DNA of 44,890 bases from Escherichia phage Ivi, in the sequence record PV841871.1, one strand, 5' to 3'. Positions 1,768 to 2,205 of the stretch are shown here, one piece after another (within the stretch, counting starts at the first letter, position 1; each line of letters opens with the position of its first letter). The position numbers and the translations under genes are program-made. The notes beneath the pieces are model-generated. The model was not told the DNA's origin. It saw nothing but the letters and a program-made list of their open reading frames with translations, and searched no databases.

Positions 1768-2205
1768 ATGACTACTATCGCGTTTGACGGTAAGACGATG
1801 TCCTGTGATACACGTGTTACGTGCGGAGACACGTTCTACAACACTGACACAAAGATATACGAGAACGATGCTTATGTTATCGGGGTAGCTGGTGATGCGG
1901 GCGCCGGAACTATGCTTGTTCAGGTATCAAATATCCTGACTATGCGTACTTATGAGTATAACTTCCAGGCTATTGTATATGAGAAACAAACCAAACGTAT
2001 CTTCTATGTGTCGTTCGATAAAAGCTGGGGGTCAAATAGCAGCGTTGTCCCAATTGTTGATAGCCACCTCGCCGTCGGTTCAGGGGCTGATTTCGCGCGC
2101 GCAGCTATGGAATGTGGGTATTCCGCACAGGGGGCGGTGGCAGTAGCATCTAAGTTCGACCTGAACACGGGTGGCAAGATTATTACCAAACCATTATTCG
2201 GATAA
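1768..2205 (+). CDS. HslV/proteasome-beta-like N-terminal nucleophile hydrolase (putative peptidase)
   Basis: N-terminus M-TTIAFDG (Thr after Met, cf. HslV MTTIVSV); GVAGDAGAG (cf. GFAGGTADA); AVGSGADFARAAM (cf. AIGSGGPYAQAAA); ATG 1768 with RBS GGAGAAAG. Confidence 0.6.
   Translation: MTTIAFDGKTMSCDTRVTCGDTFYNTDTKIYENDAYVIGVAGDAGAGTMLVQVSNILTMRTYEYNFQAIVYEKQTKRIFYVSFDKSWGSNSSVVPIVDSHLAVGSGADFARAAMECGYSAQGAVAVASKFDLNTGGKIITKPLFG

Follow-up and report, generated by a model that had tools for sequence, protein, structure and literature searches.

A PPH-family gene for a probable N-terminal-threonine hydrolase with a complete catalytic set beside the lysis cassette of Escherichia phage Ivi

Introduction

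The genome of Escherichia phage Ivi (sequence record PV841871.1), analysed here as a single window of 44,890 nucleotides, encodes just upstream of its lysis genes a short protein resembling HslV and the beta subunit of the proteasome. The original prediction, made from the letters of the DNA, took it for an HslV-like N-terminal nucleophile (Ntn) hydrolase standing alone without its ATPase. The locus raises the question of which family such a protein belongs to, whether its active site is complete, and with what partner and at what stage of the infection it could work. In the current analysis the product has been identified as a member of the PPH family, which is the only essentially viral branch of the proteasome family, and its identity as a PPH protein and a catalytically intact Ntn hydrolase is near-certain. 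A subunit of 145 residues that has the full catalytic set and is devoid of the helices on which regulators dock could reveal the minimum that a proteasome-like protease needs to assemble and to work.

Results and discussion

The gene and its product

The gene, as read from the window sequence, is an open reading frame (ORF) of 145 codons on the plus strand, extending from an ATG at 1768 to a TAA at 2203-2205.

1759..1762, plus strand: Shine-Dalgarno-like GGAG, 5 nucleotides before the ATG at 1768, read directly in the sequence
1768..2205, plus strand: gene of the PPH-family (proteasome-beta/HslV-fold) N-terminal-threonine hydrolase, 145 residues plus stop codon, assigned from PHROG 1040, the AlphaFold2 (AF2) model, the fold matches and the ratio of non-synonymous to synonymous substitution rates (dN/dS)

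A longer ORF starting from TTG 1708, given in the mechanical ORF list, was dropped and ATG 1768 is regarded as the real start because the homologues begin with M-T-T. Among the best 149 relatives examined 136 have an MT start, and the median length is 146 residues. The N-terminus of the product is MTTIAFDGKTMSCDTRV..., beginning with MTTIAFDG; residues 39-47 are GVAGDAGAG and residues 102-114 are AVGSGADFARAAM. The ORF and the three motifs are thus as originally described, and the product is, as was also stated, shorter than HslV, by about 30 residues.

Family identity and fold

The product matches PHROG 1040, annotated as 'peptidase HslV family', with an E-value of 3e-35 over its residues 1-141. 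The profile of PHROG 1040 is made up of 277 positions, and the 145-residue product covers positions 14-154 only. An exhaustive profile search of a database of 1.84 billion cluster representatives identified 5026 of them as relatives with the threshold at E <= 1e-3 and 441 with the stricter threshold of E <= 1e-10, and a homologue is present in 327 phage records. Chance is far from accounting for this similarity. With the product alone as a single-sequence query only weak matches to sequences in PDB are obtained. The family profile finds BPH, the Betaproteobacteria proteasome homologue, as the best match in PDB (8e-6) followed by HslV (4e-5), and a solved PPH structure is not found among these matches. 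Precomputed matches to the Pfam family PF00227 (Proteasome) exist for some of the relatives.

The AF2 model of the product, built with an alignment of 128 sequences, has a pLDDT of 93 and a pTM of 0.87; a model from a shallow alignment of 20 sequences was discarded (pLDDT 51.5). A Foldseek search with the former has S. aureus HslV as its top match (E = 4.5e-7), and the fold matches include HslV, BPH and 20S beta subunits. The predicted model, the fold matches and the residue conservation described below point to the T1 fold with an N-terminal threonine nucleophile, which is in agreement with the proteasome-beta/HslV-fold Ntn hydrolase of the original prediction.

The PPH family has been described by Fuchs, Alva and Lupas in 2021 (PMC8665760) as proteins of about 140 residues from Caudovirales and from prophage regions of their hosts. 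It was placed within the HslV/BPH group and is characterised by the lack of a propeptide and of helix H2. The product of the window has a length close to 140 residues, no propeptide, and a proteasome-like β-sandwich core with the equivalents of Thr1, Asp17 and Lys33 and the oxyanion glycine; helix H2 is missing, there is no C-terminal S12/H5, and the gene is one of tailed phages and prophages, with the copies in bacteria lying among phage genes. It also shares the HslV/BPH grouping, as the order of the best PDB matches, BPH and then HslV, agrees with the published placement in which PPH radiates from BPH. No essential difference from the published family is noticed. The assignment has been made by this published description of features. 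A Trp-containing H1 motif that is near-invariant in most other PPH members is absent from the Kagunavirus and Jerseyvirus copies.

The novelty implied by the original prediction is therefore not upheld, as the family is known from the literature under the name PPH and many phage records of GenBank annotate it. The PHROG 1040 product name 'peptidase HslV family' is carried by EC3-1 gp65, wksl3, ZCSE9 and many other Guernseyvirinae records. The gene is already known in this sense, and its identification repeats published bioinformatics.

The similarity to HslV does not extend to orthology. The score of the product with the NCBIfam HslV equivalog TIGR03692 is 11.3 bits and far below the cut-off of 157.75, no hslU gene accompanies it and the apical helices are reduced; because of these features the product is not an HslV orthologue. 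A search with the other HslV equivalog, PRK05456, gave no match to the product. Compared with HslV (ClpQ), the PPH product has a truncated H1, no H2 and no adjacent hslU, besides its smaller size. It differs from the 20S proteasome beta subunit (MEROPS family T1) in being without a propeptide, an alpha-ring partner, H2 and H5. BPH (PDB 5ovs, 5ovu) is a cellular protein of about 185-200 residues that forms tetradecamers, retains both pairs of helices and has a long acidic pore loop, whereas the PPH product is known here from its sequence and a predicted monomer.

A number of longer relatives have also been observed. One PPH relative of 205 residues (P0157) has a Cys-rich C-terminal extension with repeated CxxCxGxG, like the zinc finger of DnaJ that binds unfolded substrates. 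Relatives of nearly double length are encoded in phages (BFVD entries A0A1W6DWU9, 263 residues and 47% identity, and A0A2I7R6C7 and A0A5B9NBU4, about 275-279 residues). A two-domain form of PPH, with which the 277 positions of PHROG 1040 would agree, therefore exists and is possibly the 'RPC' group of Fuchs 2021. Most C-terminal extensions in the longer relatives are tails of low complexity, and no consistent clue to a domain came from them.

Active site and selection

Residue conservation was counted over 262 diverse members of the family, and the equivalences to HslV and the T. acidophilum beta subunit were derived from a manual register together with the fold match. An hhalign comparison of the family profile with E. 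coli HslV aligned only the middle region and mis-registered the N-terminus, and the equivalences were not taken from it. The codons of the predicted active site are as follows.

1771..1773, plus strand: Thr2, predicted nucleophile (proteasome Thr1) after removal of Met1; Thr or Ser in 261/262
1807..1809, plus strand: Asp14, equivalent to proteasome/HslV Asp17; Asp in 260/262, Glu in 2/262
1852..1854, plus strand: Lys29, equivalent to Lys33; Lys in 257/262, invariant in alignments A2 and A3
1882..1884, plus strand: Gly39, equivalent to oxyanion-hole Gly47, inside VIGVAGDAG; Gly in 209/262, Ala in 40/262
2077..2085, plus strand: Gly104-Ser105-Gly106, GSG motif (Ser129 equivalent); Gly in 262/262, then Ser in 235, Cys in 14 and Thr in 7, then Gly in 262/262
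2158..2172, plus strand: Asp131...Thr134-Gly135 (FDLNTGG), equivalent to Asp166, Ser169 and Gly170; Asp in 242/262, Cys/Thr/Ser in 262/262, Gly in 254/262

The full catalytic set of the proteasome, comprising Thr2, Asp14, Lys29, Gly39, Ser105, Asp131 and Thr134, is thus kept. The C-terminal D-x-x-T/S/C-G-G of the product is closer to the 20S beta subunit than to E. coli HslV. Methionine aminopeptidase cleaves a Met that precedes Thr. The proposal that Thr would become the N-terminal nucleophile upon loss of Met is supported by the nearly invariant Thr2/Ser of the relatives and by the lack of a propeptide, with the removal of Met1 itself being inferred.

Among the copies of the gene in Guernseyvirinae the dN/dS is 0.06-0.26, from which the gene is judged to be real and under purifying selection. 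The conservation of the catalytic residues in the 262 members, the lack of a propeptide and these low ratios together indicate that the product is very probably a working N-terminal-threonine hydrolase.

Helices, HslU docking and the partner ATPase

The original prediction suggested that the enzyme may use the host ATPase HslU (ClpY). The C-terminal tails of HslU enter pockets between the HslV subunits and thereby activate HslV; the HslV residues that accommodate the tails include two of helix H1 (Phe54, Phe57) and two of helix H2 (Ala79, Lys80) (PMC6429459). In the AF2 model of the PPH product a strand (36-42) is followed by a single helix of 7 residues (44-50), a loop of 15 residues and the next strand (66-72). 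Helices H3 (107-115) and H4 (120-130) are retained, and the chain ends after the strand 138-142. According to the model H1 is hence truncated and H2 absent as compared to HslV, and the apical helices that form the pocket for the HslU tail are not seen in the predicted monomer. PPH is listed for Actinobacteria, for which HslV is not (PMC8665760, Table 1), and our genome scan identified PPH copies in Micrococcales, Gaiellales and metagenome-assembled genomes of Cyanobacteria. Since the pocket helices are truncated or absent and the family occurs in lineages listed without HslV, canonical docking of the product onto HslU would be unlikely, and so would be the proposed use of the host ATPase.

A partner encoded by the phage is not found either. 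In the 10 large ORFs of the window that were scanned there is no HslU-like unfoldase, in accordance with the original prediction, and the sole AAA-type domain is the AAA_25 of a primase-helicase (40315-42582, minus strand). In the fully annotated relative EC3-1 no unfoldase is listed. We have also surveyed the neighbours of PPH in 89 viral and metagenomic loci, which represent 21 PPH clades at 50% identity, with all ORFs within 8 kb clustered, and in 65 bacterial loci with the ORFs within 6 kb. No conserved partner was found in either set of loci, the recurrent neighbours being lysis, packaging and connector genes only, and the most widespread neighbour family among the 89 loci reaches at most 7 of the 21 clades. 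Thirteen neighbour families in the 89 loci have a Walker-A motif. Eleven of them are identified by Pfam as terminases, replication-type primases/helicases (DnaB-like, AAA_25, DUF5906), a DnaC-like loader, AAA_24 and PhoH; the remaining two resemble by sequence a coat protein and a scaffold protein. There is a precedent for a member of the group acting without such a partner, as BPH, a descendant of HslV, has no unfoldase and binds epoxomicin covalently (PMC5777263).

Genome context and expression timing

The window represents a siphophage of the subfamily Guernseyvirinae with a genome of the Kagunavirus type, and the first 8 kb of the window are 84-89% identical to fEg-Eco19, EC3-1 and other Escherichia phages. 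Small genes of unknown function, the PPH gene, the lysis cassette, small Nin-like genes, terS (5342), terL (5923) and the portal gene (7186) follow one another in the same direction. The lysis cassette is comprised of the following genes.

2265..2573, plus strand: holin (phrog_2359), 59 nucleotides after the PPH stop codon
2566..2838, plus strand: second holin (phrog_2508), start set by comparison with EC3-1 gp63
2816..3319, plus strand: endolysin (phage lysozyme; phrog_7, phrog_33703), from profile matches

No terminator-like site was found between the PPH and holin genes, and the scans for sigma-70 promoters and intrinsic terminators around the PPH gene performed no better than on shuffled sequence. 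The gene order in relatives tells more. Ten of the 21 clades have terL at most 5 kb away from PPH and in the same orientation, often overlapping the PPH stop codon; a phage lysozyme is found nearby in 6 clades, and 8 have a portal gene nearby. Ten of the 65 bacterial loci show the gene order Ad1-PPH-Hc1-Neck1-tail terminator, in which the stop codons overlap with the start codons. The position of PPH nevertheless varies widely among relatives, nin-like regions included, and the gene is also carried by jumbo Erwinia phages. The original prediction called the enzyme early-expressed; nothing supports this, considering the closeness to the holin and the placement of relatives inside terL and connector operons. 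An RNA-seq time course of a Kagunavirus (PMC12645636) classified 4 genes as early, 42 including the lysozyme as middle and 11 as late; the PPH gene was not found in the homologous region of the likely GenBank record for that phage.

In about ten proteobacterial prophages the PPH gene has the gene of the head-tail adaptor, Ad1, on one side and that of head closure, Hc1, on the other (e.g. positions 5465-7639 of locus L132 and 5477-7599 of L147), an unusual spot for a non-structural enzyme. Between these prophages and the phage of the window terL is 43-45% and PPH 27-31% identical, and homologues of the portal, the gp7-like head protein, Ad1 and Neck1 are common to both. The sharing of these homologues suggests that PPH has long been co-inherited with a morphogenesis module of the SPP1-gp7 type.

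Presence and absence among Kagunaviruses

The PPH gene is present in fEg-Eco19, as a 64% identical copy, and in EC3-1. No copy is found across the whole genome of K1G, the type Kagunavirus, which has the same architecture; in phage 26 the surroundings of the lysis cassette, about 2.5 kb in each direction, showed none, and neither did the homologous 8.9-kb region of K1_SXAU_B4. The edges of the insertion or deletion (indel) are clean, as window positions 1621-1672 align to the 5' end of K1G ORF43 and positions 2188-2314 to its 3' end together with the first part of the holin gene. An ORF lies at its left edge.

1620..1787, plus strand: remnant or short variant of a gene like K1G ORF43 / EC3-1 gp66, overlapping the PPH start

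Only the first 19-21 residues of this ORF match ORF43/gp66 (tblastn, window 1620-1682), after which it diverges and ends inside PPH; its appearance is that of a remnant at the PPH indel. The full-length K1G ORF43 and EC3-1 gp66 have 97 residues with an AP2-like 'GEFKTxERAAIA' stretch.

Records carrying PPH include about 260 Salmonella phages as compared to about 30 Escherichia phages, and the lysis cassette is found in 96 Escherichia records. The PPH gene is an accessory cassette and would not be essential. Its variable presence argues against an essential role in capsid maturation and in favour of a conditional benefit; an essential prohead-protease role was downgraded in view of the genome of K1G.

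A further observation concerns copy number. The 42 kb viral contig IMGVR_UViG_3300047469_000099 has two PPH copies, one at each end (L034 3560-3958 and L064 8001-8405). They may reflect a terminally redundant genome, a repeat that arose in assembly or a genuine duplication.

Possible role of the PPH product

Putting these observations together, we favour, with moderate confidence, an unfoldase-independent threonine peptidase of the PPH family that probably self-assembles and is probably expressed along with lysis and packaging. The host methionine aminopeptidase would remove Met1 and expose Thr2 as the nucleophile, and the product would then hydrolyse peptide bonds by the classical proteasomal mechanism. 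By analogy to BPH no AAA+ partner may be needed; the subunits would probably assemble among themselves by way of the H3/H4 face, which is retained, and the substrates would be peptides, unfolded polypeptides or one particular protein of the host or the phage. It would probably be made alongside the lysis and packaging genes and not early, and would confer a conditional, non-essential benefit. The stand-alone mechanism and the late timing are what we infer from the helices, the neighbour surveys and the gene order.

Several points weigh against this explanation. Isolated proteasome subunits are reported to be inactive outside the assembled ring (PMC8665760), so the activity of the PPH product would depend on assembly, and with H2 lost and H1 truncated the ring could form differently or not at all. 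The late timing has been read from gene order only. The sequence-only models stay below their cut-offs, PF00227 giving 17.3 bits against a gathering threshold of 22.4 over residues 7-64 only, and TIGR03692 the low score mentioned above. A literature search for experimental studies of PPH or of HslV-like proteins from phages retrieved annotation-level mentions only, and in the paper on JSS1_004 the sole mention of hslV is the host gene. Lastly, the gene is tightly embedded in structural operons among the relatives, which might instead be a sign of a function in morphogenesis.

Such a role would be that of a protease processing a virion or assembly protein (the scaffold, the portal, the SPP1-gp7-like head protein or a connector) where the phage has no prohead protease of the canonical kind. 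The translational coupling of the relatives' gene as Ad1-PPH-Hc1 or directly before terL, the homologous head and packaging module shared with those prophages at levels of identity comparable to that of PPH, and the annotation of EC3-1, which has a scaffold and a coat protein and no prohead protease, are in its favour. K1G is viable with the same structural module and no PPH in its genome, and the gene occurs at widely varying positions and in the jumbo phages, which makes this role improbable. The scaffold-type assembly known from P22 and SPP1 proceeds without a protease, and this too counts against it. We assign a similarly small probability to a hijack of the host HslU, in which the product would replace or supplement HslV, dock on E. 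coli HslU and redirect ATP-dependent degradation. The N-terminal MTTIAFDG resembles the MTTIVSV of E. coli HslV, HslV is among the best fold matches, the host encodes HslU, and HslV alone is a weak peptidase that the HslU tails activate (PMC6429459); against these stand the single short H1 and missing H2 where the tail-pocket residues should lie, the low score with the HslV equivalog and the occurrence of the family in lineages listed without HslV. The product could also be a connectase-like monomer, i.e. a sequence-specific processing enzyme or a transpeptidase and not a compartmentalised protease, which we likewise regard as unlikely.

An inactive relic or a purely structural pseudo-enzyme is highly improbable; the sequence models below their cut-offs would fit it, and the almost invariant catalytic residues of the 262 members and the low dN/dS contradict it. 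A somewhat better, still low probability is given to a function in counter-defence or host takeover, where the enzyme would break down one particular protein of the host, for instance a stress regulator or an immune sensor, and be useful on some hosts only. The presence of the gene varies between otherwise collinear Kagunaviruses, and it is located in a block of small accessory genes and is yet under strong purifying selection. No PADLOC model matches the product, the library being of defence and not anti-defence proteins, and the literature search gave no experimental link. This proposal is about what the PPH product cleaves, and it agrees with the mechanism that we favour.

A more specific form of the favoured explanation, put forward tentatively and with a rather low probability, is a late-expressed, unfoldase-independent threonine peptidase, long co-inherited with the SPP1-gp7-type module and encoded within connector or terminase operons in some lineages and next to the lysis genes in Guernseyvirinae, that cleaves one specific target late in the infection and is useful on certain hosts only. 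Such a target could be, for example, a component of the virion or of lysis, or a sensor by which the host detects late phage proteins. If true, a viral enzyme of the proteasome family would for the first time have a function assigned to it. The target would explain the purifying selection on PPH in hundreds of siphophages of Salmonella and E. coli, many of which have been proposed for biocontrol. Closely related Kagunaviruses with and without a clean cassette, along with the late-operon placement in relatives, make PPH tractable for knockout and host-range work.

Other features of the window

The strongest sigma-70-like site of the first 6 kb is at 3435-3464 on the plus strand (TTGACA, 18 nucleotides, AATAAT; 11/12 matches). 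It is situated directly after the endolysin gene and before the Nin-like small genes, and might start a separate transcription unit.

The upstream genes 241-801, 1004-1267 and 1264-1623, all on the plus strand, are paralogues. The first and the third of them match phrog_6094, and the second and the third match phrog_29624. A coiled-coil-like stretch is common to the genes 241-801 and 1264-1623, as is the Cys/His motif 'DTQEC(E/A)HEW' at the C-terminus, and K1G ORF42 is related.

The replication module includes a homing-endonuclease-type gene with HNH_3 and AP2 domains (36914-37435, minus strand). It is flanked by the genes of a DUF2800/PD-(D/E)XK exonuclease and an ssDNA-binding protein, and is absent from this place in EC3-1.
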